A DNA stretch of 64,000 nucleotides from Blasia pusilla (taxonomy: Eukaryota). Under the pieces are notes generated by a model. It saw nothing but the letters and a program-made list of their open reading frames with translations, did no database searches and was not told where the DNA came from. Every line of letters begins with the position of its first letter. Within the stretch, counting starts at the first letter, position 1. This document shows positions 13,730-63,073 of the stretch, piece after piece. The position numbers were made by a program, and so were the translations under genes. The stretch spans positions 40,114,001 to 40,178,000 of the forward strand of contig CM114271.1 in the NCBI GenBank assembly GCA_050084515.1. The letters are read 5' to 3'.

Positions 13730-16069
13730 TAACTTTACTTTCACTCGAGTCGGCAATGCTTCCCCGTTCAAGGTCTCCAAGTGCAAAGACCCATTCTCAA
13801 AATTTCCACCACGCGATAAGGTCCCATCCACTTCAATTTCAACTTCCCTTGAAATTTCATCCGGCGGTTATCATAGAGCAACACTACATCCCCGGAACTT
13901 ACGGATTGCAGCCGCAGATGCCGGTCATAGCGCTTCTTCCGTTCATCCCATACCGTCTTCATGTGGCAAAGGGCTAAGTATTGTGCTTCATCCAAAGCAA
14001 CTAGGGCCTCATTCTTTCTTGTTGTGACCACCGACTCCTCGTCCGCTCTGCCCTCCTCCAAAATACGATAAGTGGGCAGGTCCCATTCAATGGGGGCTAG
14101 TGGTTGAACTCCATATATAAGGTAAAACGGGATATACTGCATGGTGACTTTCTTACCGATACGATAGGCCCACGCTGCCGCCGGAATCTTTGCATCCCAA
14201 TTGTATGAATATGTGACCGCTAAACCATTCAAGATTCAGAAAATTAGTCCATTAGACTTCTCAATTCACCCATTTGCTTTAGGGTCGTAGGGGGTCTTCT
14301 TACAATGTTTGATTAAGAAATGTGTTATCAACGATTCAATAGTCTTGTTAAGAAAGTGAGTTCTTTGGTCACTCAGCAACTCCAAGTCTCCAACGGACAA
14401 CCGTACCGGATGATAATCATTTCATAAGAGAATTTTGCTACTGCTTCACTATCATCTTTCCGAGTAGCGACGACTTCCACCATCTTCGTACAGTAATCCG
14501 TTGCGATAAGAATATACTCTCGGCGAGTTTTTCGAGTATCCAGAGAAATTGGTCCCACAAATTCAATTCCCCATTTCTCAAAAGGAGCTAAGGGAAGTAT
14601 GGGCACCAAAGGCCAGCGAGAAGTAGTTGTTGGCCTTCCTGCTCTTTGACACGTATCACATTTCTGAATAAATTGCCCCATATCCTCAGGATATGGGGCA
14701 ATTTATTCAGAAATTTATCGGCCACCAATAGCGAGCAACTAAGATCTTCTTTACCATATTCTTAACGGCATAGTGCCCTCTTGGATGGATAACCGTAATA
14801 ACCCTAGGAACTTCATCTGCTTCCAAGCATCTTTGATACTCTTCATCAGTGCCCAGCTTAAATAACACCCCTTGGCACAACTCATATGGTCATACTTTAT
14901 GTAGAAACACAACCCGTTCTTCCGCCGTCATGGGCGTCGAAAGTCGTAAAGTCAATAAAAAGCGTAAGATGTCCTCGTAGAGGGAACTGCACATTTTTTC
15001 TTCACTAATCTGAAATAGGTCCTCGTAAGGAAAAGTGTCATCCAAGGTTTTTGCGAGATCTGCATTTTTCATCCGTAAGCGAGATAAAAAAAAATCCGCG
15101 TTGGTGTGCACCTTGCCAGCTTGAGTGAATACATCAAAAGTAAATTCTTGTGACAAGAAGATCCACCGAGAAATCCTTCTGGATAGGTCAGCCTTAACCA
15201 TTAAAGTTTGGAGCACAAAATGATTCACATGAAAAACTAACTCGTACCCCAACAAATAGTGGCGGAACTTTTTGCAAGAGAATACCATCCCCAATGCCTC
15301 CCTCTCGTTAGTAGTATACTTCTGTTCTGCGGTTGAGAGTTGTCGACCCGCATAGTAAATCGGGTAATCATGCTTCTGTTCATCGAGTTGGCTCAACACC
15401 ACCCCAATAGTGAATGATGATGTGTCCATATACACATGGAAGGTCTTTGTCCAATCAAGAGGACGAAGCATAGGAGTTGCTAAGAAAGCCCGTTCAATTC
15501 CTCAAGGGCGCTTTACATTAGGAGGTCCACTCTCACTCAATCATCTTCTTCAACAAGGTAGTCAAGGATTTTTCTTTGACCGCATAATCCTTAATAAAAC
15601 GTCAATAATAGGCTACGTGACCAAGGAAACCTCTAAGTTCTCAAAGATTTTTAGGAGCTTCCAATGCCACAATTACCTTCACTTTTTCTCTATCGACTTT
15701 TATCCCTTGTGAGGACACTCCATGTCCCAACATGATACCTTGTCATCGCAATATAAGATTTCTCCGAATGTAGGGACAACTAAACCTCTCAGCACCGAGC
15801 TAATGTTAGCTTCAGCTTGTGTAAATGTTCTACCTCCAAAATGAAAATACAAAAATCATCAAGGACGATTTTGATGAATCTTCAAAGGTACTCTTGGAAA
15901 ATGGAAATCATCATCCGTTGCAATGTGGCAAGTACATTACACAACCCGAAGGTCATAACTCGGTACGCAAAAGTACCCCAATCAATAGTGAAAGTAATGA
16001 GAGGCCGATCCTTTTCTCTAATTGACACTTGAGCATAACCGGAGTATCCGTCCAAGAACGTATAACACT
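13730..16069 (-). pseudogene. Ty3/Gypsy (Athila-like, non-chromovirus) pol: RT C-terminal part, RNase H, integrase with GPY motif
   Basis: FLDGYSGYAQV...FGLCN (RT); YYAGRQL...NEREALGMVF..KFRHYLLG (RNase H); CDTCQR...PFEKWGIEFVGP (integrase); KLKWMGPYRV (GPY/F). Frameshifted. Confidence 0.92.
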
Positions 16070-16089
16070 CACTAAAACAATTCCATAGT

Positions 16090-16940
16090 TTTATGACTGG
16101 CTCATATGACTCCCTCAAGTCATATATGCCTTAAAATGACTGGAAATGACTGATGACTTATGGAGTCATAAAAGCCTAGTCATCTACCATACCATGACTC
16201 GAGTCATTTTAGGATAAGAGACCTAGTCATTCATTTAAATGACTAACACATCACTAAAGTCATATAATATGACGACCATATCAGCATATGACGTGGCAAA
16301 TCGCCAAGTACGACTACTTAAATCATGTCACATTGTATGAGTCAATTGTAGTCATATTGTTCGTAGAATTTCATAAAATTGACTTCACATTCAATTCTAT
16401 GACTAGGCTTTCAAATATGACTAAGTCACATTGATCATTTTGTTTCGTCTAAATGACTTTAAATGGATATATACGACTCAAGAAATGACACGGTCTTTGT
16501 GTATGACTCAAGCCTGACTACTTTGTATGACTCCATGCTTTGTGAATATGACTAGGAACTTAAATATATGATTGTTTTAAATGACTCCATATTTTTTTAA
16601 TACATTTTTTCTTATGACTAGAATCTAACTTCTATATGATTGATATTTTGCATGACAGGTCTAAATGACTCCACGATTCATTAATATGAGTGCATGATAG
16701 ATGAATATAACTAGGTACCTGCATATTTGACTTTTAAATGACTGTATATGGTTTTAGTATGATTTGGTACATGTTTGGATTAGTAGTTTAAATGATTGCA
16801 TATTGTTTTAGTATGACTTGGTACATGTTTGACATTAGTAGTTTAAATGACTACATATGGTGTGATATGACTAGAGTTTGGCTACATTATATGACTGAAT
16901 GATTTATGACTAATATGATTCATATGATATTTAAATGACT
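16090..16940. repeat. CACTA subterminal ATGACT/AGTCAT repeat field (left end)
   Basis: Dozens of ATGACT-like hexamers in both orientations. Confidence 0.85.
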
Positions 16941-22823: not shown

Positions 22824-25800
22824 CTAAAGCACTTCTCTGGACACGTGGATGATAGGGACATTATCACAATCTCTATTTGCAGTCACCACCTCTTCAGCAG
22901 TGAGCTCTACAACACCTAGAGTGTTAGCTAGTGGCACTCTTTCTGATGGCATTTCAATCTGGTCAATTGCAACATAATATCCTTCATCTAGGTTTCCACC
23001 ATCATAGATATCCGAAATTACTCGACGGGATCTAGATTCTTTTCTCAAAACAACCTTCCATCCACTTCCTGCATTCGTATCTCCAAAAAAGACTTGTTCC
23101 ACTTGAGATGGGAACACAAAGGGTTAATGGTTGATAGGTTCACAAGATCTAAGGTTTACAAGTAGAAAGCCTTCATGGTCTCGCTTCATGGATGGCGTCC
23201 GTGATTTCCAATCTTCCCTCACCCACCTCCCTCTCATTAATATTACAGGTTGATCAACAATCCCATAATCAAGCGCAATTACATCGACCAGAACTCCCAC
23301 ATATGAATAAGCACAATTCTGATCATCATTACCCTCATCCAAAAATATTGCTCCAATTCCACTATCGTAAGTGGAGTATGCATTATATCCACCCTCTCCC
23401 TATACCCTATAGTGATTGCCATAAGCCTTCATAGACTTGTATGAGAGAACTTTTGCTTGTGGAGGAATTGACAAAGCCAATAGCACTTCATCCACCTTCC
23501 CATCTTTTTCCCTAGCATCTCGAAGGATAGCTGGTTGAATCCACTCTTCAAAAGAAACTGATGCATTCTCAGCCTCAAATTTACTGGTAGAAAGAAAGAA
23601 CATCACCAAAGAATAAGATGACGTGGAAGCTGAAACAAACATGTAAGGTTCAGAAGATCAGGTTCAGGGTTTCCATACATTGAATTCATTGAATATAGTT
23701 GAAATTTACGTGCGCCACATGACCATACACTCCATATTGTGTAGGACATAATGGTGTGCCAAGATAATCACTTCTCGGGATAATATGATTTCACCTTCCA
23801 ACTCCTTCCCTACGATCCCTTCTTCTTCGCCGTCATCCCATGTTCGTGTCCTCACATCCTCAAATCTTTTCATATACTCAGTCACAAATCCCAATGCCTC
23901 ATCTTTGATATACCCCTCTGCCATACATCCCTCTGGGCGAGCTTTAGATCTAACATATTTTTTCAGAATACCCATGTATCTTTCCATTGGATACATCCAT
24001 CGGCAAGCTAAAGGCCCACATATATCCAATTCTTGGACAACGTGGATAAGAAGATGTGTCATCACATCAAAAAATGATGGTGGAAAATGCATCTCCAATA
24101 GGCAACGGGTAATTTTTGTATCCTTATGTAGTTGTTCATAGCATGTAGGATCATACACTTTACAACACAATAACCTAAATATCTTACTCAAACGCATGAT
24201 TGATGAGCGAATTGGATCCTTCATTAGCCCACGAAGGACAAAGGGAAGGATTTGGTGAATCAACACATGATAATCATGTGACTTCATGGATCCCAATTTC
24301 TTTTTAACCACGTGCTTCTTCAACTCCGCACTATATCCTTCATTAGCCCACGAATTGGATCCTTCATTAGCTCCTAGGATTTTCCTAGGAGCTAGGAAAA
24401 TGGACATTTCATGAGGTGATAAAACATAATCACATTGAGGTTTCACTAGCCCTGTTGCTTTACTTGGATGGGGTTGTAACCATAAGTGAGGTAGAATTCC
24501 ACGAGCCTCCATATCTCTTCTAACCTTCACTGTATCCTTCATCCCAAATAGAGTTTTAACTAGATTCTCAGATATATTCTTCTCCACATGCATAACATCT
24601 AGGATGTGTCGTATCAGCAAATGCTACGTTGAGGTCAAGGAAAAATATATACATATTCATGGTTGACAAGAGATAAGTAACTATATCGCCTATCACAACA
24701 AAAATTTGAAAACAATTAGATATTTGTTGGATACTTTCCAGTATGGCAAATCAAAGAGTACACTTCGCCGCTTTACCCCTATCCTCTTGTATGGATCCGT
24801 AGGAGCATCCTCTCGACCACCTCCATCGTCATATATTTTTTTCTCTTCAGCCCATTCCAGAATTTAATCTGATGTAATCCTTAGCGGTGGTGGTCTAGAC
24901 TCACTCTCACCATTGAATCAAGGGCCGTAAGGTCGCCCTCTCCAAACATGGTCTAGTGGAAGGTGTCTTCTATGACCGCCAAATACAGGCTTTCCACATT
25001 GTTTGGAGAAATCTGAATCCACATACGGTCCACATACGGTACATGCAAGTTTTCCACCATGGCTTTGCCGTGAGATTGTGCCATAGGCTGGATAATCATT
25101 TATAGTCCATAAGATCATGGCTCTAAATTTGAACCCATGTGGTCTTTTCACATCGTGGAATTCAATCCCATTCCACAACACCCTAAACTCCTCTATCAAG
25201 GGGGCCAAGAAGGTGTTGATATTCTCTCCATTCACACTCTCCTTACCAGGTATGATAAGAGCCAACATGACAAAAAACTTTTTTGTTTGAAGCCAAGGTG
25301 GAAAATTGTAGTTAACCAATAGGATTGGCCATGTTGACCATGAGTTTGCCTTATGAGAGTATGGATTAACTCCGTCAAGTGCTAAACCAAACCTACAATT
25401 TCTACCCTCTATAGCAAAATCTGGGTACAAACGATCAATATGATTCAAAGCCTTGCTGTCCCCTGCATGTCTTACCATGCCATCCTTACTTTTGTTCTCA
25501 GAAGACTGACTCAATAACTCAGACAAGGCCCTACACCTATACATACGCCAGATCCGCGGGATTACAGGGAAGTGTCTCAATACCTTATTTGGTACTAAAG
25601 ACTTCCCGACTTGCTTGAACCTAGCATTCCCACACTTCAGGAAAAATTTTGCACCTTCCAAGTCCCCTCGAAATAGAACACAACCTTTAGGGCAGGCATG
25701 GATAGAGTTGTAGCTCATACCAAGTTTACTAATGAGTTTATTTGCTGCATAGTATGATGGTGGGACAAGATTTTCAGATGGGAGTACCATCTCACGTAGG

Positions 25801-26430
25801 AGTTTCAATATCTCATCAATTACAATATTAGGGACCCCATGGGTCGTACCAATATTGAAAAGGAGCATAACAAATGCAGGTAAAGAAGTCTTGGCTCCAG
25901 GGAAGAGTGGCTTGCATGCTGCGGTAAGCTCGTGAAAATCTGATGGAATATTTGGATCATTGGTTTCATTGAGGTTCCCGTTCTCTGTCCCACTTTCATC
26001 AACAACCATATCCTCATCATGGAGATGATCATATTCTCTAAAAATATCATTCAACATCTCGGGAACATCAATATCAACATCAAAATCAGGATTCTCTAGA
26101 TGCGAGATTTCAGGTCTAACAAAGGATTGCATAATGTGCTCACGTTGCTCCTTGTCATTGACCTCTTGTTGTGTGAACCACTCCTCATCTGAAGAGTCCC
26201 ACTCCTCCCTACTTTTTGGAACTCGACAAAGATGAGATCGACCATTTTTCCTTAGACGGTCTTCTACCTTTGCTAGTCCCAAGGTAGTTCCGCCCTTGCC
26301 CTCTTCCTCCCCACTTTGCGAGACCTATCGCACTCCCTTTGCCACAACTTATAGTCGTGTGCTTGGATTCTATGAGGATGTGTCAAATCCAACCGGACGT
26401 GAGCAGTCCTTTGTGGTATCATCACCCCTA
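22824..26430 (-). pseudogene. CACTA TnpD/Tnp2 transposase (Transposase_21, DUF4218- and DUF4216-like segments), spliced and partly disrupted
   Basis: IHACPKGCVLF, GLALDGVNPY, STWPILLVNYNFPPW, WTINDYPAY, RHILDVMHVEKN, MKSHDYH, FFDVMTHL, RWMYPMERYMGILKKYV, PEGCMAEGY, FPSQVEQVFF. Confidence 0.93.
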
Positions 26431-35990: not shown

Positions 35991-36870
35991 TTGCAACCCG
36001 TCGGAAGCCTACGGGTTGCAAAATAGGTAGGTAAAGCAACCTGTCTGAACCGACAGGTTGCATCAAATTGAGGAATGTCTGAATCCAAAGGCTTGCAATC
36101 CGTTGGAATCTGACGGATTGCGAGCTAATGTTTTGCAAAAAGAAATCCATCTTGCAACCCGTTGGAATCCGGCGGGTTGCAAGATGAACTTTTTTCAGAA
36201 AAAAAATCAACCTGCAAAAAATTGCAACCTGTTGGATTTTGACGCGTTGCAAGATAAATTTCTATCGCAAAAAGTTCATCTCGCAACTTGTCGGAATCCG
36301 ACCGGTTGCAAGTGACTTTTTGCGAGAGAAATTAATCTTGCAACCCTGTCATAATCTGACTGGTTGGAAGTTACATTTTGCGAGAAAAAATCATCTTGCA
36401 ACGCGTCAAATTCTCATGGGTTGCAAGAACATTGGCAGAGAAAAGTCATTTGCCGAAGGACTGCAATCGGCTTTTTTCAAAAATATTTTGGTGCTTGTCC
36501 ACGGGTTGCAAGCGGCTTTTTTCAAAAAAAATTTGGTGCTTGTCGAACGGTTGCAAGCGACTTCTTTCAAAAATGTTTTGGTGCTTGTCAACGGGTTGCA
36601 AGCGGCTTTTTTCTAAAATGCTTTGTTGCTTGGAACCTTTCGGATTTCGACAGGTTGCAAGCATTGAACCCTTAGGCGTTCCCTCCATCAATTGGTAAGT
36701 TTTGTGCAGGGACTTAATATTCACGAGAACATTGGCAGAGAAAAGTCGTTTGCCGACGGGCTACAAGCGGTTTTTTCAAAAATATTATGGTGCTTGTCGA
36801 CGGCTTGCAAGCGGCTTTTTTCTAAAATTCTTTGTTGCTTGCAATCTGTCGGATTGCGAGAGGTTGCAAG
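35991..36870. repeat. Array of ~31-bp palindromes, consensus TTGCAACCYGTCGGAATCCGACRGGTTGCAA, plus a larger tandem duplication
   Basis: Copies at about 35991, 36036, 36093, 36152, 36222, 36281, 36338, 36395, 36630 and 36839. Further copies at about 33685, 33747, 33801 and 34107. Confidence 0.85.
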
Positions 36871-36939
36871 CATTGAACCCTTAGGCGTTCCCTCCATCAA
36901 TTGATAAGTTTTCTTGTGCAGGGACTTAATATTCTTTAT

Positions 36940-37316: not shown

Positions 37317-38964
37317 ATACAAACTCGAGGTTTATGTGTAGTGCGGCTCAGATAGAGGCTCTGACGGTGATGACTTGGGGTGATGCAAGAGTTACCAAGC
37401 CACTAAGGGGTAGGGTGGAGATAGATCCACAACAGGGAACTGACGAGTGATAGGCCAAGGTTCCCTAGTCATTTATGTTGTCAAAGGCACTTCACACACC
37501 TTTGATGGTGCCTAGATGACCAATATTGCCCACAAGTGAGTCGATATCATGAGGAATTGGAGAGAAAACTCCTATGCTGGCTCAAGTGGAGCAAGTGTCG
37601 ACCATATGGTTGGAGGTGGCCACTAGGGTGAGCCAGGCGGCGTTGTTTGCCACCATGGAGTTGGCGACGATGGGTGTTCTAGTTGGCCACCATGTTGTGT
37701 GAGCGTGGAGAGGTGGATGCCTCTTTTTCAGAGGTGGTTGTTGAGGAGGTGGTGGATGTGTCCTCGGAGCATATGCTCGGGACGTCCCTGACTCAATCAG
37801 GATAGGCTACGATGGTGAAGTTAGTGGATATACCAACTTGATCAGTGATAGAGCAAGCCATGGTGACACCAGGTGTGGTGTTGTTGGATAACCAGCTTGG
37901 AGTGTTCCGCTTGTTAGTCCCATAGGTATGATGTACCACCCGTAACGCGTCCTACTTGCTTTGGGAGCGCAAACCTTGTTGTTAGGAAAGGCGGCGTGTT
38001 TGACATTGGGATTACGGAAAGACGACATTGAGCCTTGTCCCTTTTAGATATAGACCTCTATTAGGGGCGTGTCACTTATGCATTACACAACTCGATAGGA
38101 GGTAGCGGTCAAACTCCAACCAGAGCATGCGTTAGATAGTGCGATGGTGTGCTCTTGTGCAATTACGACACCGGTAGAGTCGTATGATATGTTGGTAGGC
38201 ATTATGGTGTTGTACTCCCTTGGTTTTATCCTTGATTTTTGGGAGGAAAGATTTCTTATCGACCACAATACGTGGCCATCAAGTGATGGATGGGTGGGCC
38301 ATCTACTGGTGTAGTCTGCAGGGCGTAGTGGTGGTCGACCACGTGATGATACGGTGACCGTGTTGGCAACATTCATAGGTGGTGACCATGAGAGTTGTTG
38401 GAGGGGACACACATATGGAGGAAATTCCCGTAGCGGATAGTCCCGTGGAGAGACATGCTAGGGTGGGTGTCTCTTCCTATGGTGTGGAGACCTCTTTACT
38501 CTTGGTGGGTATGAGTGTTGACTTGCAGGGGAGTGCATACAAGCTTGTAAGGCAAGCGTGGAGTTGTGTGGGTGTCTTTGGAGCAAATAGAGTCAGGTGA
38601 TGGTGGTGCTCTTGGAGTGGAGACTTAATATCTTCAGATAACAGACGTGTTGTCTGGCAGGGTATGGAGGAGGGTGCAAGAGTGTTAGATCTCTTCGGAG
38701 GGATCAACAAGGCGGGTATCTGTAGTGTTGTAAGAATGATGGAACCAATGGTGTAGATGTGTATAGAGTAGTAGATCATGTTACGTAAATGTGATGTCTG
38801 CTATTTGGAGTTAGGGGCATCCAAATACCAACTAGGGGGGCGGTTTTGTGGTCTCGATGTATGTGCGTGAGTGTATTTTGTTTATGAGTGCATCAACCCG
38901 TATGTTGGAAAGATTGGTGTTGTGTGGTGTGTAGATATGACCAGCGATGTGTATTCGTACGACA
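37317..38964 (+). mobile_element. Truncated, internally deleted second copy of the DNMT-carrying Gypsy family
   Basis: Colinear with ~56895-58310 (protease region, RVLDLFGGI at ~38679-38705), then jumps to the PHD 3' end, PPT (38834-38843) and block B, which ends in CA at 38964. Confidence 0.85.
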
Positions 38965-38966
38965 GT

Positions 38967-39599
38967 TGTTACATCTTAGTTAGACGACAGGTAGAGTTGT
39001 ATCATGTCAAAGACATAGAGGTTTAGTGGGTTGTCCAGGTATAACTTTTTTCTTGAGACGTCGGATGAGGTTGGCGACAATCCCATTGCATTGGGAACAT
39101 CATCTCTAAATTTTTCCTATTTTTGTCTTTGTCATCCAAGTGACTAGTTGACCCAGTCAACGGTCATGCGATAACCTATGCTTGCAGGTTACCGTTTGGA
39201 GGCTATTTTTGGGGGAAGAGCTATTTTAAGAGAATACACATTGTTAGTCACATCTGTAAGGGTGTGAGAGAGGGAGAGATAGCTTTCCCAAGCCATCTTT
39301 CTCACTTTGGGCCTTAAGAGCACCTCTCTTGCTTGTTTATGTAGGAACTAGGGTGGTAGCGTCCAGATTTCCTCATAACGGAGGGTGGATGTGACTCGAT
39401 ATGCCGATGTAAATTCAAGAGTGGAGTTTTAGGCTGGGTAAGCTATTTTTATTTTATTTTATTGTGTGGTCTCGATGTATATGCATGAGGGTATTTCGTT
39501 TATGGGTGGATCAATGTGTGTGTTGGAAAGATCGGTGTTGTGTGGTATGCAGATATGACCAACAATGTGTATTGTGTAGCAATGTGTATGCGCACGATA
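38967..39599 (+). mobile_element. A+B unit of the same family (solo-LTR-like or internally deleted element)
   Basis: 38967-~39440 is homologous to 56200-56652 (block A, starting TGTTACATC). 39463-39599 is homologous to 61678-61813 (block B). Confidence 0.8.
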
Positions 39600-42800: not shown

Positions 42801-43418
42801 GGAAAGGAGAAGAGAGCGGAAAGAGCGAACTAAGAGATCGACTATTGTATGCCCTGGAGCATCGTCTCGCGAGAGAGGGCGTTGACTTACGGTGCACTCA
42901 TCCGTGAAAGACCGCGACACGGGATGCACATTTAGAGAAAGAAACTTTTGCAATCACTCGTCTCTGCCTTGAAGTGAAGCTGTATGTATCTACAGCGCAG
43001 GAGTCCGCAGAGCACTGGTTGAGGGAAGAGAGAGAGAGAGAGAGAGACAGTGAGAGAGAAAGATTAATCTCCATCCCTCACTAGACGAGATCGCCCGACG
43101 ATGGCGGGGAGAGGGAGGCCTACGAGGATACTCCTATGTTTGATGATGGAACCCCCATTTGATTACTCACATGTTGCAAGGATCAGCAGAAAGAACTTCC
43201 GCGTGAAGAGATTGGATCCTCCAATGTTACCTTTCTGCTGTAGTTAACTCTCCTTCTCCATGAAGTCCGGGGTGGATGCATTGGCTGGTTTGTAGGCTCT
43301 GTGTGACGGTATTTCGAGACTAGAAGCTTAGCTCTCTTTGCCGATCTGCGGAGAACGAGCAATTTGCCCATCCAAGAAGAGAGAGGAACACACACTAACA
43401 GAACTATACACAAATAGG

Positions 43419-43456
43419 AGATTGAGATTGAGAGAGAGAGAGAGAGATTGAGAGAG

Positions 43457-43510
<54 letters not shown>
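43419..43510. repeat. (GA)n microsatellite immediately upstream of the PP2C start codon
   Basis: Long GA run with gagatt interruptions. A second GA run lies at ~43024-43060. Confidence 0.95.
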
Positions 43511-43514
<4 letters not shown>

Positions 43515-43516
43515 CA

Positions 43517-46500
43517 ATGGGATCCGGCGTGTCACACTTAGCAGGGTGCTTCATCCGACCTCGCGATGGTTCTTCCGATGGAGGAGTAGGACTGCAATAC
43601 TCGGAACCGTTGGATGAAGGATTGGGCCATTCTTTTTGCTACGTTCGCCCTCCACCTCTCGGCTCCCCCCCACTTATATCCCCCGATAAGTCCGATGAGA
43701 TTCCCAACCCAAATGGGAAACATCTCCCGGTGCCAGTAAGCGACGATGAGACGCTTGTCGATGGTGCCGACCTGTCGAGCTCCCAAAAGGTACGGATGTG
43801 TTTCGAATGGCCGATTTCCACCGCAGCTCTCAATTGTTCCAAGATTGTGTTTCGAAATTCCTGCATTGGAAGTTATAGTGCTTTTAGGTTTGGAAAGCTT
43901 TCCTACCGCTAGTTGCACAGAAATCATGATTCGCGCATCCTTAAGTGTACAGGGTTTTGAGATCGAAGATTATTATCATGTGTATGAGTTGAGTCCAGTT
44001 CCATTTGCATTTGCCATGTCGAGTAGTCTTTTTGACTGGTGTCTATTCATAGGAGGAAGCGGCGACTTCCCATGCCGAAAAGAGCCGTTCTGCTGTAGAA
44101 AGAATAAAATCCTCGTCTTCCGACAGACCTAAAAACCCTCACATTGACAAGACTAAGAATGTGTCGGAGACGTCCTTCAAATCCATCTCGGGAGCATCAG
44201 TGTCCGCCAACACGGCCACCCCCCGTTCTATAATATCGTGTGAACAGTTCAATTCGTTTGCCAATGTACTGTACGATCGAGCGGCTGCTTTCGAAAGCAC
44301 TTCTTCTTTCTCTGCACTTCCTCTTCAGCCGGTCCCCCGGGGATTTTCTGGTCCGTTATGTGGAGCTTCAGGTCCTTTGTCTGGACCACTCGACCGAGGA
44401 TTCATGTCTGGTCCCATCGAAAGAGGGTTCATGTCCGGTCCTCTGGAAAGGGGTTTTATGTCAGGTCCTCTCGAGAGAGGCTACATGTCTGGTCCTCTTG
44501 AGCCTGGAGACAGAGGCCACTTCTCTGCTCCTTTGAATGGACCATACAATTATTCGACAGGGTACTTGAGGAAGAGGAAGAAGTCGTTGGTTCGCTTTGT
44601 TAGAAGTATGAGTGGGCCCATGAAGAAAGCGCTCGCCAAAACCGCTTCTTCTCTGGCAAGGACGCAGAGATCCATAGTCGCTCCTGTGAAGAGTTATGTG
44701 TTCAGGGAAAATAGGGATAATAAAGAGTCCAAGGAGAAGGACAGTGGAGACAAGGAGTCCAGTAAAGCACCTCAAAAATCTGTCGACGAACCTGAGAATG
44801 TCGATTACACTTCTTCAGAACTGGACTTGCGAGAAAGTGATAATTTACAGTGGGCACAGGGCAAGGCTGGAGAAGATCGGGTTCATGTAGTACTGTCCGA
44901 GGAGCACGGTTGGCTGTTTGTAGGTATTTATGATGGATTCAACGGCCCGGATGCACCCGATTTTCTGATGAGCAACCTGTATACTGCTGTTTATCAAGAG
45001 CTCAAGGGACTTTTGTGGGACACGAAAGAAGACTCCACGAGTCAAGGGGATGAAGAAAGTGAGTGGGAAGTGGTCGGTGAGAGGCAGGCAGATGGGGGAG
45101 AAACCGTCACCAGTGAGGATTTCTCAACGCGGAGGAAAGAGAGGGGTCAACGTGAAGGAGGACGAAAGCGAGGCATGGGAGTGGTGGTCGACCAGAACCG
45201 CAGATGGAATAGAAGGGGTTTAGCTAGGAGTAGTGAGAAGGTTCATAGTTTGAAGGGGGAGAGAGTCGAAGGGGACACTGTGAATCTTTACGTAGATGAT
45301 AGGACTATAGAGGTTGATGATGTGGCTTGTGTGAATGAAACGAAGTCAGGTTTCTGCAAATCCGGCTCAGATTGGGAGGATTCGAAAATGGAGGATGCAG
45401 GTTTTGGAGAAGGAGAAGTCATTCCCGTAGAGTGTGAGAGTGAAGAGGCAAGTACAATTCACAACTCAGGTCAGGCGGGGAGTAGTCAAGAGAGATCCTC
45501 TCTTGAACGGGAAGGAAAACTAGCTGAAGATAGGGGAAACGCTAATGAGGATGAATCAAGTGGCGAACTTGCTTTAGAGCAGGCAGAATCCATGACAGTG
45601 AGCTCTTCGTCAGTCAAAGAACAAAGATTGATCAAAAAGAGATCAGTAACTGGCTTCAAAGTGCGCAATAGTCATGAGAGAAGGAAAGAGCAACTGCGAA
45701 AGTATTTCCAGTGGAGGTATGATTGGGACCATGAGAATGCCGGATTTGTGCAGAAAGTTAAGAATGCCAAAGTGAGCCAGGAACCTGAGATTTCAAGCAA
45801 AAACAAGGCTGTTGATCACACTTCTGTATTGAAAGCTTTGGCCAGAGCCCTTCAAAGTACAGAAGATGCCTATCTGGATATGGCTGATAATGTCCTGTAC
45901 GAGAATCCAGAGCTTGCATTAATGGGTTCTTGTGTGCTAGTAATGCTAATGAAAGACGAGGATGTGTACATATTGAATGTTGGAGATAGTCGCGCTATCC
46001 TAGCCCAACACCCAAAAGTAGAGCCTGTTAATATGTTGGGAAAATTGGGTCGGAGTGGACTTCACAGAAATGATTCTGGAGCGAGAGATTCTCTATTAAG
46101 GATTGAGCTTGAGCGCATTATTGAGGAGACTCCACTGGAACTTGAGGCTCTGGAGGCAGCTCATGACAATTGTAGCATGGAGGGACCACCAATTTGTGGG
46201 CCATCACTACTGGGTGCATTGCAACTGACAACAGACCACAGTACAAGTATCGTGGAGGTGAGGGGAATAAGTTTTGACTTCTTACTAAGTAAAATTTTAC
46301 AAGTCTGCTCTGATGCTGGTAAAAACTATTATTCATCTGGACTACCACATGTTATTATCTTATGCCTTGGAATCATAGACTTTATGTTATGAAGGAAGTA
46401 AAGCTAGCTTTATGAATAGCAGGCACTACCTGCTATGAGTTCACAAGCTTGTGCACATCCGGATGAAGTGCACCTCTCTGCTGGTATCAAGTGGAGTTCC

Positions 46501-54977: not shown

Positions 54978-55299
54978 CAAGATTGCATATGGACAAAGTT
55001 TGTGTCCATCGATATGTCCATGTCCGTGGACTTACATTGGTCCCATAGAAGGACTTATCCATGTGGGCCCCATCTTACCCTTCTTTCCCATCCCCTCCCA
55101 ATTTTCTTCGTGGTGCACACTTTCTTGTTTCTTCCTCCTCCCACATCCATTCCCACCCCCTTAATTTCCCCATCCACCCTTGCCTTCACTTCTATCATAA
55201 ACTATAAGTGTGGGCCCCATATTTTTTGATCCATATCGATGGATATATCCAATATTGTACGTCCTAAGAACGGACTTGCCAATTTTTTTTGCAACCATG
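54978..55299. mobile_element. hAT-like MITE, copy 2
   Basis: CAAGATTGCA...TGCAACCATG ends; 8-bp TSD ggatacat/gtatacat (7/8); interrupts the Helitron helicase. Confidence 0.8.
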
Positions 55300-57519
55300 G
55301 TATACATGGGAGAACGACTTGATCTTTAGTGTTCCGACCAATGATGATTTTGGCATCAACGACATGTTGGATGAATAAATGAATCACCAATTGGGTTCCG
55401 CTAGCTTGTCCTTTTGAAATTTTCAAGTTTTGCAAAAGCATGAAAGGTGCTCCAATTTTCAAGCATAAATAATGTGATGATAAACCAAACGGTAAGTAGA
55501 TATGTAAGTATTCTATGGGACAGACATGACTCATTCCCTCGCGCGGAACCGAATCAACAATAAGGTAAGTAGATTCTATGTAGAAATATAACTTAGAAGA
55601 TGATTTGAGCTTCGATGCATAATAAATTTGAAGAATTGATGAAGAAAATTACATTCAAAGTATTAGAAAACCAAGATGATCCCTCTATAGAATGGAGACA
55701 CGACGTTCGCATTGATGTTATAAACATCTTGATTTTTTGATATAAGAATTTGTATATCTCTTAAAAAGTTGATGTCAAAAATCTTTTCAAAATCTTTTGC
55801 ATTGATGAAGTCAATAATATCACTTATTTTCTTACTCTTGGTCACCATATATTTGGAAATTTTATAAAATCATCTCCGGAGTGAGCTTGCAAAGATACAC
55901 GATTCTCTCCCACACCCAATAACCAATCTGTAGGTCGTAGTTCATTTCCAAATTTTGAACTCTTACATTTGTTGTAAGCTTCATCACCCTCATATAAAAC
56001 CATAAATATTACCTCTTTAGTGTAGCTTGGATAATTTGTGGATGATCTCCATGAAGAACCACAAACAAGACTTGGCAAAAATCCCCACAAAAGATCGCTA
56101 ATTTGCCACCAAAAGGAACGTTCCTCAAGTTTTTAGATACCATTCCCATGATATCTTGGAAGGAAGAATTTATAGTCTTGAATGCATGGTGATGAGTCAT
56201 GTCACATCTGAATAGCCGATAGGCCGGGATCTATTGTCGATAGGGCGTAGGAGCCAGTGGACTATCTTGAGTGTAACTTTGTCCGACGGTGTCGGATGAG
56301 GTTGAGGATAGGTCCATTGTGTCAGAAACGTCGTTTCTGACAACTTTCCTTTTGAGGTCTTTCACACCCGGGTGACTTGTTGACCAAATCACCCGCCCCT
56401 GGTAACCTGTGCGCGCATGTTACTAGGAGGATAGCTATTTTTAGGGGAAGAACTTTTTGGCTCTTCCCAACCCTATATAAGGGAGGAAGATGGTTTTCCC
56501 AAGCCATCTTTCTCATGTTGGGCCGTTGGAGCACCTCTCTTGTATGTGTGTGAGATAGGACTAGGGTGCTAAAGTCCGTATTCCTTGATAGCGCAGGGTG
56601 GACGAGGCTCGATATGCCGATGTTGATTGAGGAGTGGAGTTTTAGGCCGGGTGTGCAATTTTAACTACTCTTTTTCCTGGAGTTCTTCCTGGATGTGGTG
56701 GTCGAGGACCACCACCAGCCATAGGAGATGGAGCAGGAGCACCAGAGCCGACATTTCTCTCACGCATCGATCAGTTGGACCAGAGGATTGCTGCCATGAC
56801 GATGATGCAGCTCAGGGAAGGCACGGAGCCGCGAGCAAGTAGTGTGGTTCCAGCTTCTATCTCTTACCCTGACCCGGGTGAGGATCTTGCTAGTATGGGG
56901 TTTATGTATAGTACAGCTCAGGTTGAGGCAGCTGCAGTGGTGACACGGGGTGTTGCGAGAGGCACCAAGCCATCGAGAGGTCGAGTTGAGATTGACCCAT
57001 CGGAGGGGACCGATGGGCGTCAAGCCAAGGTTCCATAGTCATTCACATTGTCGGAGGCACTACACACACCATCGATGGTGCCTCAACGACCAGCGGTGCC
57101 TACAGCTCAGGAAGGTACGTCGACGTCACAAGGAGTTGGAGTGACAACTCTTATCTGGATCGAGTGGAGTCTGTGTTGACCATAGTGTTGGAGGTGGCCA
57201 CAGAGTGAGTCAGACTTCGCTATTTTCCGCCATAGAGTTGGCGACATTGGGAGTTGGACCAGATGAGTTGTTTTGGCTGGCTGCCACGTTGTGCGAGTAT
57301 GGAGAGGTGACTGCTTCTTATTCAGAGATAGTTGAGGAGGTGGTGGACTTGCCCTTCAGAGCCGGTGCTCGGAATGTCGCCCATAGAGTCATGGCATGCC
57401 GCGGCGGCGAAGTTGGTAAATATGCGTGCTCGACCGGCCATAGAGCGAGCAGTTGTGACACTTGGAGTAGTGTTACTGGATAACCGAGCTTGAGTATTTC
57501 CCTTGGTTAGTCTGACGGG

Positions 57520-57850
57520 GACAATATACCACCCGCATTGCGTCCCACTTGATTTGGGAGCGTAGCCCTTGATGTTAGGGAAGGCAACGTGTTTAGCGTT
57601 GGGGTTACGGAAGGCCGACATTGAGACTTGTCCCTTCTAGATACAGACCTCGATTGGGGGCGTGTTACCAACGCAGTATATGAATCGACAAGAGGTAGTT
57701 GTCAGAGTCTTGCAAGAGCATGCGACAGATAGTGCTATGGTGCGCAGACGTACGATTACGACATGAGTTGAGTCGTACGATGTGTTGGTGGGGAGTAGAG
57801 TGTTATATCCCCTAGGATTCATCCTTGACTTCTGGGAGGAGACCGTTGCT
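57520..57850 (+). pseudogene. Retropepsin-like aspartic protease domain
   Basis: VPLDLGA*PLMLGK (LLDSGA-like; the second copy reads RVLLALGAQTLLLGK) ... YDVLVGSRVLYPLGFILDFWEET. Confidence 0.65.
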
Positions 57851-58269
57851 TATCGGCCACGGTGGTGGTCAGGTGACAGGCGGATGAGTCAGTTACCTAT
57901 GCAGTTTGCGGGACGAGGTGGTCGATCACAAGACGAGTCTGTGACCACGCTGGCAACTTTCATAGGTAGTGTTAGCTGGCGTGGAGAGTTTTTGGAGGGG
58001 AATGCACATGCGGAGGATATCCCAATAGCGGATAGTGCCATAGAGAGAAACGCCATGGCGGGTGTCTCTCCCATGTTGGTGAGACCTCTTCACCATTGTG
58101 GGGTACGACTCGAGAGCTACACAAGAGTGCCGAAGACCTCGTGAGGCAGGCGTGGGGTCATGCCTTTATTCCGGAGCAGCGAGAGTCAGGTGGCGATCGG
58201 GCCCTTGGAGTGGAGGCGTTGACTCCATTGGATACCACACTCATTGTGTGGCAGTGTCTAGAGGAGGTT

Positions 58270-59230
58270 GTTAGGGTGTTAGATCTCTTCGGAGGGATTA
58301 GCACAAGATGGGCTACGGTATTATAGGCGGGGATATGGGTGCATCAGTACCTTTATGTGGAGAGAGATGAGACCGCGCGGCGAGTATCATTACGTCACGT
58401 AGCGAGATTGGTCTAGAGGTATCATGAGTTATTGCCGGTATCTGCAGTACATGGATATCAGCATACACTACCCGCCGACATCTCTTTGGTGGGGGCGTAG
58501 GATCTCGATAGAGTTGGCACCATTCATTTGGTAATTGCTAGATGGCCGTGTTAGGGTCATTCATTAGCTGGTTGAGGATTTGGATTGCATGATCCGAGGT
58601 CAGGGATGTTTTGGGAGATGCTGCGAGTAGTACCACACTTGCAAGAGAGTCAAACATGTTCTCCAGAGTACATTTTGGAGAACGTGCTGTTGTTGGGAGA
58701 CACTCGTGCACGTTTGATGACGAGTGTGCGTCAGGTGTGCATCTAGTTGGGACTTGCTATGTTGCTAGATGCAGTGAGAGTTGGATCACGCGCCCATCGT
58801 CCATGACTGTGGTGGACAAACCTAGTACCATCAGAGATACTGAGTCGAGCAGACGATGGAGTCCAGAGAGCACCACATCTCAGAGTGGATGCTATTTTGG
58901 GCTCAGGATGTCAATCTCAGGTGGTGAGGCGGGATGATAGACCACCGTTGGCGATGACCAATATGGTGGGGGATTTGAGGGTAGCCTTACCTACGTTGGT
59001 GAGCTTGCCAAAATCCCATGCCTTTTGTCAGGGAGGTCCAGGCATGATTTGGGATGAGGTGACCCAAGCATTGGAGGAGCCTATAGCACATGAGCGCGAG
59101 CGTGCCATGGGATTTGCTACAGGAAATACGGCGGTGCCAAGGATGACTGAGGCATCCCGGAGACAGGTGTTGGGGCAGGCAATGGACCTCAACTGTCTCA
59201 CATGGATAGTTAGCCTAGGTATGGCTGAGC
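58270..59230 (+). pseudogene. DNMT3-like C5 cytosine DNA methyltransferase domain within the retroelement polyprotein
   Basis: One reading frame with 7 in-frame stops. Motif I VLDLFGGI (58276), motif II YVERD, motif IV LVIARWPC*GHS (PC at 58546-58551), motif VI YILENV (ENV at 58678), motif VIII LLDAVRVGSRAHRP*LWWTNL (~58760-58824), motif IX ERERAMGF (59092), motif X RRQVLGQAM (59158). Confidence 0.88.
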
Positions 59231-59689
59231 ATAGATGGATGCAAGTGTCATCCATGCCGTCACGCCCACGAGTTGGACCATTGCCTACAGGGTCTGTACA
59301 GGCATTGGCTGGGGGCGGGATGAGGAGAGATAGACACCCACGGACTTCCTGGGATGTCGTTTGAGCGGAGAGTGCAAATGCGGCTAGAGCAGCACATGTT
59401 CATTTTTTGGATATGGAGCATGGGGTAGAAGGTCAGAGTGGAGTGATTGTTGCGGAGGTGGCTAGGATTGCTACATAGTAACCAAAGTCAAAGGTTGCGT
59501 CCTCTCCGAGTGAGGTCACGATGGAGACTTGGGAGCCTGTGATAGGTCTCAAGTTGATAGAAGGAGAGCAACTATGAGTTCATAAGTTTTTGAGAGGGCA
59601 TGTTAGTTGTTTTGCCTTCAATATGGGAGACTTGGGTACGCTGAAGGGTCCCGAGATACGGATTGAGTTGGCTAGTGCTACGCCGATCT

Positions 59690-60434
59690 TTCGTCCACCC
59701 TATATAGATATTCCGATATGGAGCGAGCCTTGACTCAGAGCAGGAGTCATGACTTGTTGGAGGGAAGTATTGTGGAGTTATCACATAGGGAGTATGCATC
59801 TACCATAATCATGCCGGTGAAGAAGGATATGTATGGCAATTGGACGGATAGGCGGATGTGTGGAGATTACCGTCCTATCAATCGATAGACGAGGTCAGAT
59901 CCGTACGCCATGCCTACTCTTGAGGATATCTTTGATGCGGTAGGGCGTTCAAAGATCTTCAATATTTTAGATCTCCATGTTGGCTATCATCAGCTTCCTA
60001 TCAGGTTAGAGGACAGGGAGAAGACAACATTTTGGGGGATAGATCGGTTCAGGAGAGATTGCTTGTATCAGTGGTAGTTCTTACCATTTGGGTTGAAGAA
60101 CGCGCGTGCACAGTTTCAAAGAGTGATGGATAGGATTTTGGCTAGCTTGGATTTTGTACAATGTTACATAGATGATATTCTTATCTTCAATTCCACGGTT
60201 GAGGAGCATGAGCAACACCTGGAGGTGTTTTGGCGATTGCAATTACATGGACTGAAGTTACATCCAAGCAAGTGTAGATTCTTTCAGGAGAAGGTTGAGT
60301 ACTTGGGACACACCATATACCCGAGTGGGTTAGACGTTCAACAGACAAAGGTGGAGGCTATTGCGCAGATTCCACGTCCTACAGCTGTGAGTCAAGTCCA
60401 AGCGTTTGTTGGACTGGAAAACTTCTATCAACGG
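59690..60434 (+). pseudogene. Ty3/Gypsy reverse transcriptase domain
   Basis: RMCGDYRPINR, LDLHVGYHQL, EDREKTTFW, LPFGLKNA, YIDDILIF, LHPSKCRF, VEYLGH. Confidence 0.93.
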
Positions 60435-60481
60435 TTAGAGTCAAAAGAGTCGACTCAAACCATGTGCATACATCCCAACCC

Positions 60482-61599
60482 GTGACAGAGTGCGAGCATC
60501 CTTCAATGCTCCCACTCCGCAGTTAAATCCTTTGCCGATTATGGGTTTAGGTTATCGATGGATTTTAGACTTTGTGGGACCTTTTCCATTGACGGGGCGT
60601 CATCACAGGTACGTGTTGGTGATGGTGGAGCATTTCTCCAAGTGGATAGAGTTGGTGGCACTACCGGACAAGGTGAGAGAGGGAACAGCTTATGCGTTTC
60701 TAGATCATGTGCTTAGTCACTTGGGTGCACCGGCGGAGGTGTTGATTGACTAGGGTACCGAGTTTAGGGGAGACTTTCAGGCCTGGTGTGATCAGGCGTT
60801 GATAGATCATCGCACCACGTCTAGAGATCATCCTAAGGCGGATGGGTTGGCGGAGAGAGTAGTACAGATGGTGAAGAGAGGATTGCGCAAGTATGGCTTG
60901 GAGTGGGGATAGTTGAGGGAGTGGGACCTACACTTGCTATGGTTGGTTGTGGGTTATCGCTTTCGTCGGTAGACATCCTTGGCGTCATTTTCACCGTACT
61001 TTTTGATCTTTGGGAGAGAGCCACATTTAGCTACCTACAACTATTCAATGTGACATGGCGGAGGTGTTAGATCTTGATGATCCAGATGTGTGGGTTCAAG
61101 CGTGTTCTCAGAGGACGGAAATTTATCTCAGAGTTATGCATATGGCCTTTGAGAACTTAGCTATTGCTCAACATTGAGGTACGCGACCATTCCTAGAGGA
61201 GGTTATCGTCCAGGGATTAGGAGATTTTTTCCTGGAGATTACGTGTATTTACAGCAGGTGGCACTCACGACGCTAGATGTCACTACAGGGCGCACAATCC
61301 TACGTGTGCGCGAGGTATCATCGACCGGAGTCCTCATCTTGGAGGGACGGGATGGTATGGTTTGGAAGGATCATGTGCGCAATTGTGCGCCATGTCATCT
61401 TATGGACGTAGACGGGACAGTGGATCCAAGCTTGGCACTGGTACCTGTAGGCTTGAGGTGTATGTTGTGCGGATCTGCGAGGGATGCATCCACCATGTTG
61501 GTAGGTGATGGTTATTCTCGAGGGTGGCATATGTCATGTCTGATCCTCCCTCTTGATGTAGTTCCCACGAGACGATGGATATATCCGAGATGTGTATAG
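60482..61599 (+). pseudogene. DDE integrase core with C-terminal PHD finger
   Basis: WILDFVGP (D), EHFSKWIELVAL, VLID*GTEF (D), LAERVV (E), then CMLC-x9-GDGY..GWHMSCL..PLDVVP..RWIYPRC (PHD-like, 61459-61593). Confidence 0.85.
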
Positions 61600-62812
61600 G
61601 GTAGTAGGTCGTGTCAGAGAGATGTGATATTTTTTATCTGGAGCTAGGGGGATCCAAGTGCCAACTAGGGGGGCGGTTGTGTGATCTCCATGTATATGTA
61701 TGAGTTGATTTCAGTACATGTGTGGATCTATCCGTGTGTGGGGAAGATCGATGTTGTGTGGTGTAGATGTGACCATCGATGTATGTTGTGTAGCGATATG
61801 TATGAGCACGACACTCATATTTCCCTCATCTCATATGATAAGCCAAATCCTTCGAATATAGCATGCAACTTAGCTATTAGTCGGTAAAATCAAAATAAAT
61901 ATATTAAAAAATATTGGTATTTTGGAAAAGACATTACATCCTTGCCACTTTAATGCAGTTGCAAAGTGATGAATTGAGTATAAGCCTGCAAGTGGAGTTG
62001 TAGGGTTTAGGGTTTAATGGAAATGGAGTTTTCATCTACATTGATTGGAATGTTGAAGCGTGAATGGGTTGTGAATCCTTCATCTTACAACTATCCTTGA
62101 TGAAGCACCAACTAAAGCTACACCTTATGCATCTCGTACATTTGCAAGAAGAAGATTATATAAGAAGGTTTTTTTTCAGTTTTTCAATGCCCATCCATAA
62201 TGAACATTTTAGAAGTAAATGTAATATCTCCATCAATGATGCTATCAAGCTTCTCAAGTATAACATTCCAAATCAATCGTTGTCCATTATTCAAATTCTC
62301 CTCTCCTTACCTAGTTTTTTCACATAGCGAATCTATATCATATAGGAGCTCTTTTACTTTCAAATACAAATATTACAATGGAGTATGGGAATCATCTTGG
62401 GGCATATACAAGGTTACTAGACTAGATTACTATACTGCTATGTGTTTTGATGCCTAAAGTGACCGTGTTCTGATAGTCCAAGGAGTACTAGGTGGCGTTT
62501 GAGCAACTAAAGTTTATGGTTAGCAATGTACAAAATTTGGCAAAAATAACCAAAAATAAAATCTTTTTTTTTGGTAATGAATCATCATAGATAATTCATT
62601 ATTTTTGGGGAAATAGCTCATGGCGATGTAATAAAACTTTTGGTTAACGCCATAGAAAATTTCAATCCTATTTATGAAGTGAAAAAAGTAAGAATCTTAG
62701 GTCTGTGGAACACGACACAGGGCCTGTAACCAAGACCAATAATATTTGCTATCCAATCCGTCACGGGTAGATCTGGCATTTTAATTCGGGAATCATCTTG
62801 ACTTGGCTGATT

Positions 62813-63073
62813 CAAGGTTTCATGTGGACAAAGTCTGTGTCCGTGGACTTACGTCCGTCCTATGGAAGGACTTGTCCATATAGGTCCCACCTTCCTCTTC
62901 TTTCTCTTTCCCCCCACTTGCCTTTGTGTCCCTTTCTGTCATGTTTCTTCTTTTTTCCACCTCCACTTCCTTCCCTCTTATTGCTCCACAGGCCTTGGCC
63001 CAGACATCATAAACTTTAAGTATGGGCCCCATCTCTTGCAATTCGTGTCAGTGGACATGTCCAAACTTGTCCG
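62813..63073. mobile_element. hAT-like MITE, copy 3 (3'-truncated)
   Basis: caaggtttcatgtggacaaagtctgtgtccgtggactt... is nearly identical to the start of copy 1; the right TIR is missing. Confidence 0.75.

Follow-up and report, generated by a model that had tools for sequence, protein, structure and literature searches.

A decayed Gypsy-type element in the Blasia pusilla window

We analyzed a 64,000-nucleotide stretch of the genome of the liverwort Blasia pusilla (GenBank assembly GCA_050084515.1, contig CM114271.1, positions 40,114,001 to 40,178,000; hereafter the window). On its plus strand, from about 56200 to 61813, lies a Gypsy-type retroelement that carries a DNMT3-like cytosine methyltransferase domain (the DNMT domain) between protease (PR) and reverse transcriptase (RT). 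An earlier note, made from the letters of this stretch alone, had proposed a Gypsy element with this order, and the same order was found in liverwort, moss and algal proteins and in metagenome loci. Considering identity and anatomy together, we regard it as highly probable that this is a dead copy, with internal deletions, of a Gypsy-DNMT3 retroelement.

At its 5' end the window copy has a terminal repeat, B1 (56200-56673), which can be aligned to a second copy in the window from 56291 onward; its start is placed near 56200 by inference. A remnant of the C-terminal part of Gag follows in two frames (56745-57360), and residues 395-569 of the Marchantia protein P0158 match it by tblastn at 56745-57342. 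Residues 1-394 of P0158 had no tblastn match in the window copy; approximately 394 N-terminal Gag residues and the 5' untranslated region are deleted. The aspartic protease region, together with the first part of the PR-DNMT linker (57389-58090), is in the frame of 56201 and matches P0158 residues 584-821 with 47% identity. The homologous stretch of the relatives L047, P0011 and P0082 carries the Pfam domains Asp_protease_2 / gag-asp_proteas, and the window protease is 38.7% identical to that of L047. The rest of the linker and the DNMT3-like domain (58093-59361) match P0158 residues 820-1244 with 62% identity in one frame that has seven internal stops. Motif I lies at about 58276-58299, the PC of motif IV at 58546-58551, and motif X at about 59160-59190.

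The terminator of the first open reading frame (ORF1) and its context read TAG TAA CCA at 59476-59484, where relatives have TAG CAA CCN. RT occupies 59703-60434 in the frame of 56202 (PF00078, 89 bits; P0166 residues 753-958, 61% identity). The earlier note had the DNMT frame running on to RT with a single break near 59703. The frame change is there in comparison with P0163 and with P0166, and is the sole passage from the DNMT frame to the RT frame, but further stops lie at 59362, 59476, 59479 and 59575. Downstream of RT, 60438-60486 marks the place where a deletion of about 1 kb took out RNase H (RH) and the integrase zinc finger: residues 1376-1615 of P0011 stop at 60437 and residues 1946-2124 resume at 60487, with no counterpart to the intervening 330 residues (RT_RNaseH, Integrase_H2C2). 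The integrase (IN) core (rve) and its C-terminal region follow at 60487-61458 in the frame of 56200 (PF00665, 43.5 bits), with P0008 residues 1165-1534 matching at 60484-61593 and the core 71.7% identical to that of L047. A decayed PHD finger and the stop codon of the second open reading frame (ORF2) occupy 61459-61599, the finger extending to 61593. It scores 19.2 bits against PF00628 (cut-off 24; intact relatives, 31.9-40.6 bits), and alignment to the PHD fingers of L047 and L064 shows substitutions at three of the eight zinc ligands (C>G, C>Y, C>Y). Repeat A1 (61677-61813) is the last recognizable part; the element is truncated after it, and the expected B2-A2 is absent.

The window copy is colinear over Gag, PR, DNMT and RT with Marchantia, Calypogeia and Sphagnum proteins (tblastn, plus strand). 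It is dead: besides stops and a frameshift it has three deletions, its PHD finger is ruined and its 3' end is lost. The ratio of observed to expected CpG did not discriminate: the element had 0.72, the window as a whole 0.63 and relatives 0.55-0.70. Compared with a consensus of 46 relatives, the window copy had 150 transitions among 321 differences, with 80 C>T plus G>A changes and 70 T>C plus A>G changes. Because synonymous divergence to the 46 relatives is greater than 2, this spectrum is silent on how the copy decayed.

A second, fragmentary copy lies on the plus strand at 37329-39597, in agreement with the earlier note, which had pointed to one near 38682. It runs from Gag-PR to DNMT motif I (37329-38704), followed by A1 (38755-38955), B2 (39060-39449) and A2 (39462-39597). 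The stretch 37329-38704 matches 56899-58298 with 71% identity (blastn), and tblastn with Marchantia proteins matched the copy at 37331-38735. ARVLDLFGGI stands at about 38680-38705, after which the copy breaks off, so the protease-DNMT junction is also found in a diverged second copy.

There was no sign of transcription of the DNMT stretch of the window copy. No RNA run was listed as containing this stretch, and reads from three RNA runs of the species (6-12% of each) gave zero depth at 57919-59446. This is as expected for a dead copy; it is limited to this copy and says nothing on intact copies. The few RNA reads elsewhere on the element were mostly partial fits (71/74, 66/68, 62/71). Some RNA reads partly match 59829-60210, 60402-60783 and 61357-61547, within RT, integrase and PHD, and then continue into different sequence. 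These partial matches indicate that related copies of this or a similar element are transcribed elsewhere in the genome.

Three other features adjoin the two copies. A decayed PIF1-like helicase fragment on the minus strand (55946-56203, 63 bits), presumably a Helitron remnant, abuts the 5' end of the element. A short dispersed repeat is present at 4926-5102, 55016-55098 and 62811-62987 (76-79% identical), and two of its copies bracket the element region. A tandem array with a 45-nt unit (TTG.C.A.GG.TGCAAGCGGCTTTTTTCAAAAA...) lies at 36450-36912, just 5' of the second element fragment.

The methyltransferase domain and its relatives

Translation of 58261-59364 in the frame of 58261, with stops read as X, gave 368 residues (P0001) with seven internal stops (five TAG and two TGA) and a terminal TGA. 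All the strings that had been quoted as C5 methyltransferase motifs in this frame are present in the read-through, in canonical order: VLDLFGGI, WPC*G, ENV, LLDAVRVGSRAHRP*LWWTNL, ERERAMGFATGNT and RRQVLGQAM. The motif row reads LFGGI ... WPC* ... ENV ... AHRP*LWWTN ... ERERAMGF ... LGQAMD, which is the order I-IV-VI-VIII-IX-X. All seven internal stops sit where relatives have Gln, Arg or Trp codons, which one C>T or G>A substitution would turn into TAG or TGA. The 368-residue read-through scored 23.1 bits against PF00145 (E 6e-5), above the curated cut-off of 22; a 1900-residue translation of the frame scored 19.8 bits, under that cut-off, and intact relatives scored 28.9-58.4 bits.

The nearest characterized enzymes were of the DNMT3 type, both by sequence and by fold, as the earlier note had supposed. 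A phmmer search of PDB sequences with the read-through found 30 chains, 29 of them DNMT3A/B/C (best E 7.7e-6), and the second block of the alignment ties ERERAMGF / RRQVLGQ to the C-terminus of DNMT3A. A profile built from 16 relatives scored 52.9-71.4 bits against DNMT3A/B/C in the PDB (best E 5e-19), compared with 39 bits for M.HhaI, 33-39 bits for DRM over a 60-residue stretch only, and 30 bits for DNMT2. There were no DNMT1 or CMT chains among the PDB matches of this profile at E<=0.01. An AlphaFold model of the DNMT domain of the intact relative L047, made with 49 input sequences, had a mean pLDDT of 91.7, and those listed among its top 50 Foldseek matches in the PDB were all DNMT3A/B/C (best E 1.6e-19, TM 0.83 on the target).

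We also considered other families. DRM was rejected, as it had been in the earlier note, since the motifs are unpermuted and DRM chains match a 60-residue stretch only. A bacterial methylase was considered and rejected. A protein atlas search yielded nothing more specific than generic C5-methylase clusters, none scoring above 0.90. Identity to the vertebrate enzymes DNMT3A/3B/3C is low (20-23% in the Foldseek alignments). They share the motif order, including the DA..V.(S/G).AHR.R..W.N block, and differ in that the methyltransferase of the element stands in a Gag-protease context; no PWWP or ADD domain was found beside it by Pfam.

A HMMER pass over 1.84 billion representative proteins found 1503 relatives at E<=1e-3, including 176 at E<=1e-30. 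The resemblance is far past chance, and the motif order, the profile score and the catalytic Cys identify the domain, at the level of sequence, as a genuine unpermuted C5 methyltransferase of DNMT3-like type.

The closest relatives of the DNMT domain are "hypothetical proteins" of Marchantia polymorpha, Calypogeia fissa and Sphagnum fallax. Mp_4g09160, Mp_8g17980, Mp_6g11220, Mp_2g26090 and several MARPO_ models are 55-70% identical to the decayed window copy. The Mp_4g09160 model covers ORF1 in full and has all the DNMT motifs. Four Marchantia proteins (P0163, P0164, P0165 and P0168) are 93-96% identical to P0158. The Gag/PR-DNMT order was found in at least 12 Marchantia proteins, with RT and RNase H following where gene models extend far enough. 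A second, word-based search with alignment returned mostly the same Marchantia proteins. Five relatives came from Closterium species. In Klebsormidium nitens, the protein GAQ93235.1 has the order CCHC-protease-DNMT, and its PR and DNMT are colinear with Marchantia P0158 (E 1e-54). Identity to the K. nitens protein was approximately 36% for the window DNMT and 29% for Marchantia over PR plus DNMT. A scan of JGI metagenome contigs with DNMT peptide patterns gave 287 candidate stretches, of which 100 were confirmed as relatives and 80 were kept. All 80 have Gag-PR-DNMT. RT-RH-IN lies downstream in 56, and the remaining 24, many of them short contigs, had no ORF2 match.

Domain probes were run with phmmer to sort 186 relatives by architecture. 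Classes in which PR or Gag precedes DNMT, or RT follows it, which is the order of the window, total 39. Classes in which RT or RH precedes DNMT, or IN follows it, total 82, many of them with a terminal PHD finger. This sister architecture, RT-RH-DNMT-IN-PHD, is represented by P0008, P0018, P0184, P0019 and about 80 more representative proteins. Its members resemble the window element in having a DNMT3-like domain (approximately 36-39% identical to that of the window), a Gypsy-type RT, RNase H, integrase and a PHD finger, and differ from it in having DNMT between RNase H and integrase rather than between protease and RT. The sole named host is the chlorophyte Scenedesmus sp. PABB004 ("pol", KAF8056149.1); most members are metagenome proteins.

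In an unrooted maximum-likelihood tree of 164 DNMT domains (quick search, LG+G4; domains with fewer than 270 profile positions, including that of the Sphagnum protein, were left out), a single branch with SH-aLRT 95 separated 32 rows with the PR-DNMT-RT order from 80 rows with the RT-RH-DNMT-IN order. The window falls in a 10-row clade with Marchantia and Calypogeia (support 100). GAQ93235.1 lies on the same side of the SH-aLRT 95 branch and in the same DNMT clade as the window, in agreement with the link to Klebsormidium drawn in the earlier note. When the other architecture serves as outgroup, Klebsormidium diverges first, Closterium next and the liverworts last, and this branching of only three named lineages fits descent with the hosts.

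Between the intact relatives L047 and L064, the ratio of nonsynonymous to synonymous substitution (dN/dS, Nei-Gojobori) was 0.153 for DNMT (365 codons, dS 1.20), 0.036 for RT-RNase H, 0.142 for protease and 0.241 for the linker, which indicates purifying selection on the DNMT domain between intact copies. Median identity to L047 was 43.8% for DNMT, 23-24% for Gag, 37.8% for protease, 63% for RT and 72% for the integrase core.

A window copy full of stops and deletions could be a one-off chimera, in which a host DNMT3 pseudogene or a captured fragment lies in or beside one decayed Gypsy copy, and a single locus cannot tell nesting from fusion. We consider this extremely improbable. Both order and frame are repeated in the second window copy, the domain is under apparent purifying selection between intact elements, and the arrangement recurs in at least 12 proteins of Marchantia, in four further genera (Calypogeia, Sphagnum, Closterium and Klebsormidium) and in 80 metagenome loci. 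This recurrence already refutes a chimera. The comparisons thus indicate that a DNMT domain between PR and RT is a trait of the family and not a one-off capture.

Several findings temper this account of the domain and its family. The label "DNMT3-like" comes from the ranking of PDB sequences and folds, and the tree is one of element-borne domains, without host DNMT3, DRM, MET1 or CMT. The metagenome loci were chosen by their DNMT peptides and cannot reveal sister elements that lack DNMT. A dS of 1.2 is near saturation, so the dN/dS value for DNMT is rough. Among decayed copies, median dN/dS was higher: 0.53 for DNMT (47 copies, 1015 pairs), 0.34 for RT-RH and 0.57 for protease, with 0.74 for the linker. 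Such medians are expected if decay after insertion adds to earlier constraint. Finally, the proline of the PC motif, which is normally invariant, is kept in 72 of the 164 domains and replaced in 92, most commonly to give E-C (GWECQD is the commonest form of the motif).

The replaced proline bears on whether the family trait is still a DNA methyltransferase. The domain could have become a DNA- or chromatin-binding module, or it could act on RNA like DNMT2, and the lack of activity of the K. nitens domain in yeast, as given in the text passages of PMC5890265, would agree with this. However, 162 of 164 domains retain the catalytic Cys and 152 of 164 the E-N of motif VI, and the RxR and ERE..MGF motifs are broadly conserved. 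Both in fold and in its best matches the domain is of the DNMT3 type, with DNMT2 at 30 bits against up to 71. In the same passages, the independently captured SymbioDIRS-Dnmt3 domains methylate CG in yeast (PMC5890265). We therefore consider loss of DNA methyltransferase function unlikely.

Reading frames and terminal repeats

The intact relative L047 defines the coding organization of the family. ORF1 (976-5082, 1369 aa) encodes Gag (CCHC)-protease-DNMT and ends at a single stop, after which ORF2 (5086-8226, 1047 aa) continues in the same frame with the order RT-RNase H-integrase-PHD, the integrase having both H2C2 and DDE. L064 is like L047 except for one frameshift in ORF1, and L008 is nearly intact. 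The DNMT domain is the C-terminal domain of ORF1 and would be fused to RT in a read-through product only. The proposal that the methyltransferase was part of the polyprotein is corrected by this layout: the domain is joined to Gag-PR, and a conserved in-frame stop separates it from RT-RH-IN-PHD.

We located the junction of ORF1 and ORF2 by script in 43 of 81 sequences. The stop was TAG in 36 and TAA in 7, and CAA CCC came next in 33. The two intact copies and the nearly intact one read TAG CAG TTA, TAG CAA TCA and TAG CAA CCA (L047:5083-5091, L064:4661-4669 and L008:4509-4517). In the window copy (59476-59484), the second stop, TAA, reads as a CAA altered by C>T. UAG-CAR-YYA is the leaky-stop context of tobacco mosaic virus and other tobamoviruses. 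From this context, the UAG of ORF1 is probably leaky, and a leaky UAG would allow Gag-PR-DNMT to be made in bulk and its fusion to RT-IN-PHD rarely. The position of DNMT in ORF1 would thus lead to an abundant enzyme. Read-through of a stop would be an unusual route of pol expression for a plant Gypsy-type element.

The repeats at the ends of the element are split direct repeats. In two relatives, L007/L028 (apparently one insertion in two assemblies) and L020, repeat B, about 340 nt long, occurs once 5' of the coding region and a second time at the 3' end, where it has repeat A (115-116 nt) on both sides. No repeat A was found near B1 in L007/L028 or L020. A1...A2 is present at the same spacing in L040, L048 and L077, and more weakly in L046 (74 nt, 81%); B1...B2 was seen in L001, L032 and L078. 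The window copies show the same relationships: 56291-56662 matches 39060-39449 at 69% (repeat B), and 61677-61811 matches both 38844-38955 and 39462-39597 (repeat A). The window element fits the scheme as B (56200/56291-56673), internal region, A (61677-61813) and truncation. Among genomic DNA reads of the same species, 16 joined the end of B to the start of A (56673 to 61676) and three joined the end of A to the start of B (61813 to 56200), which marks both repeat edges in other genomic copies; 169 DNA reads diverged past 61813. The unit is bounded by B1-internal-A1-B2-A2 split direct repeats and not by long terminal repeats (LTRs), and a pair of identical LTRs, as in an LTR retrotransposon, was not found.

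An ordinary LTR Gypsy element is the obvious alternative. Both LTRs of the window copy would have been truncated by chance, and the A-B-A at 38755-39597 would be a 3' LTR and the start of a neighboring copy. Taken alone, the window fits either reading, and the Gypsy-type pol with a DDE integrase, with no tyrosine recombinase found, is what such an element would have. We nevertheless consider this alternative very unlikely. In L007/L028 and L020, B2 has a repeat A on either side at the 3' end and none is seen near B1, A1...A2 recurs at the same spacing in L040, L048 and L077 (and more weakly in L046), genomic reads from the same species hold both the B|A and the A|B junctions, and text passages of PMC5890265 report DIRS-like repeats for the K. 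nitens element.

Our preferred reading, split direct repeats around a Gypsy-type coding region, does not make the element a member of the DIRS order. The pol region is of the Ty3/gypsy type, with PR, RT, RNase H and DDE integrase in order, and the full set is present in L047, P0011 and P0156. No tyrosine recombinase family was found by Pfam in these three or in the window. DIRS was rejected on the presence of rve and Integrase_H2C2 without a tyrosine recombinase; the repeat layout alone is DIRS/Ngaro-like. Because the split repeats and both read joints are present, the element combines a DDE integrase with a repeat layout that otherwise belongs to tyrosine-recombinase elements.

Two points count against this description of the termini and the stop. 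The full B1...A1-B2-A2 pattern was seen in two independent insertions only (L007/L028 and L020), the other loci being partial. Most decayed copies have CCC, and not YYA, after CAA, and read-through is deduced from the context alone.

The window contains other genes and elements. A POLTERGEIST-like PP2C gene on the plus strand (43418-46392) has a 779-codon open exon; its best named relatives are in Marchantia paleacea (69%), Riccia (60-61%) and Calypogeia (58%), with mosses, lycophytes and ferns ranking next. This gene places the window in a liverwort genome. A (GA/CT)n-like run coding for Glu/Arg lies ahead of this exon at about 43420-43510. A different Ty3/gypsy copy on the minus strand (13880-16100) has RNase H (92 bits), RT and integrase; it is 22-44% identical to the DNMT-bearing family, and there was no DNMT match beside it. 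Long open frames for a CACTA-type transposase (Transposase_21/tnp2, 186 bits; DUF4218, 124 bits) are on the minus strand at 23706-26324.

Known systems and possible roles of the methyltransferase

Elements of this kind have been known since 2018 from K. nitens; what is new here is a wider host range and several anatomical details. In text passages of PMC5890265 (de Mendoza 2018), KnitGypsy-Dnmt3 is a Gypsy element whose Pol ORF includes Dnmt3 domains, Ka/Ks is given as <0.2, its repeats are described as "the same as that of a DIRS retrotransposon", and the K. nitens copies are placed with Dnmt3. The window element shares with it an unpermuted Dnmt3 in the coding region of a Gypsy-type element, DIRS-like repeats and purifying selection. 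It differs in its host, a liverwort, where those passages have a charophyte only, and they contain no mention of an ORF1 stop with a read-through context or of a PHD finger. Because the description is shared, with a Dnmt3 domain in a polyprotein ORF of a Gypsy-type element, and because the nearest named algal relative is a K. nitens protein, we file the window element in the KnitGypsy-Dnmt3 family, as a land-plant member. The unrooted tree of element domains and the colinear PR and DNMT of GAQ93235.1 and P0158 support common descent with the K. nitens copies. We infer from species and architecture that GAQ93235.1 is one of the published copies.

SymbioDIRS-Dnmt3 of Symbiodinium is also a retrotransposon with a Dnmt3-type domain. 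According to passages of PMC5890265, it is a DIRS element with a tyrosine recombinase, acquired independently in a dinoflagellate, and its isolated domain carries out de novo CG methylation in yeast; the element described here has a DDE integrase. Chromoviruses likewise have a histone-tail reader at the C-terminus of a Gypsy-type integrase, but theirs is a chromodomain and that of the window family is a PHD finger (PF00628). The chromovirus assignment was rejected on the PHD finger and the absence of a chromodomain at the integrase C-terminus. To our knowledge, chromoviruses have LTRs and no DNMT.

Our literature search found no published report of a DNMT-bearing retrotransposon in a land plant, although the supplements of PMC5890265 and PMC12344493 may list bryophyte copies. 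Passages of a 2019 opinion paper call such elements absent from land plants "such as tracheophytes" (PMC6338049), and passages of a 2026 preprint speak of "streptophytes (Gypsy-DNMT3)" (10.64898/2026.05.21.726589). Where bryophytes are concerned, an absence of this kind calls for qualification.

How the element might use its enzyme can be proposed from its anatomy. The protease would free the methyltransferase, or leave it on Gag, inside the particle; the packaged enzyme would methylate new cDNA before or at integration; and the PHD finger on the integrase would read histone tails and influence the choice of site. Release, co-packaging and cDNA methylation are also suggested in passages of de Mendoza 2018 (PMC5890265). 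We favor self-methylation of cDNA as the function only tentatively, at less than even weight, and the remaining weight is shared among action in trans on host chromatin, a non-catalytic role and an RNA substrate. In the yeast assay described in those passages, no methylation by the K. nitens domain was observed, a result that its authors deem inconclusive (PMC5890265).

The enzyme could instead act in trans on the host genome, building heterochromatin at landing sites or disturbing host silencing, rather than on its own cDNA. An ORF1-encoded, and so abundant, enzyme would suit such a role, as would the histone reader carried on the integrase, but the K. nitens methylome resembles those of land plants despite these elements, as stated in passages of PMC5890265. 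Action in trans seems to us rather doubtful, and we give it less weight than self-methylation.

It is possible, although we would not bet on it, that a single ancient lineage with an integrase and split repeats carried a DNMT3 writer and a PHD reader along the streptophyte line, from Klebsormidium-grade algae via Zygnematophyceae into bryophytes, that it is still young enough for activity in Marchantia polymorpha, and that its enzyme methylates DNA in vivo.

What a retrotransposon gains from a DNA methyltransferase has been a standing question since 2018, and the described hosts, Symbiodinium and Klebsormidium, are hard to manipulate. Marchantia polymorpha is genetically tractable. With its many near-identical annotated copies, the question can move to that species. 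Three parts of this anatomy offer hypotheses on dosage, packaging and targeting: DNMT as the last domain of the Gag-PR ORF, followed by a stop that is probably leaky; a PHD finger attached to the integrase; and split repeats on an element with a DDE integrase. What bryophyte annotations list as DNMT3-like "genes" may be ORFs of transposons; a UniRef name given to Mp_8g17980 starts with "DNA (cytosine-5". If the lineage is active and its enzyme methylates DNA in vivo, element-encoded de novo methylation would be a live part of the land-plant epigenome and would be open to genetics.

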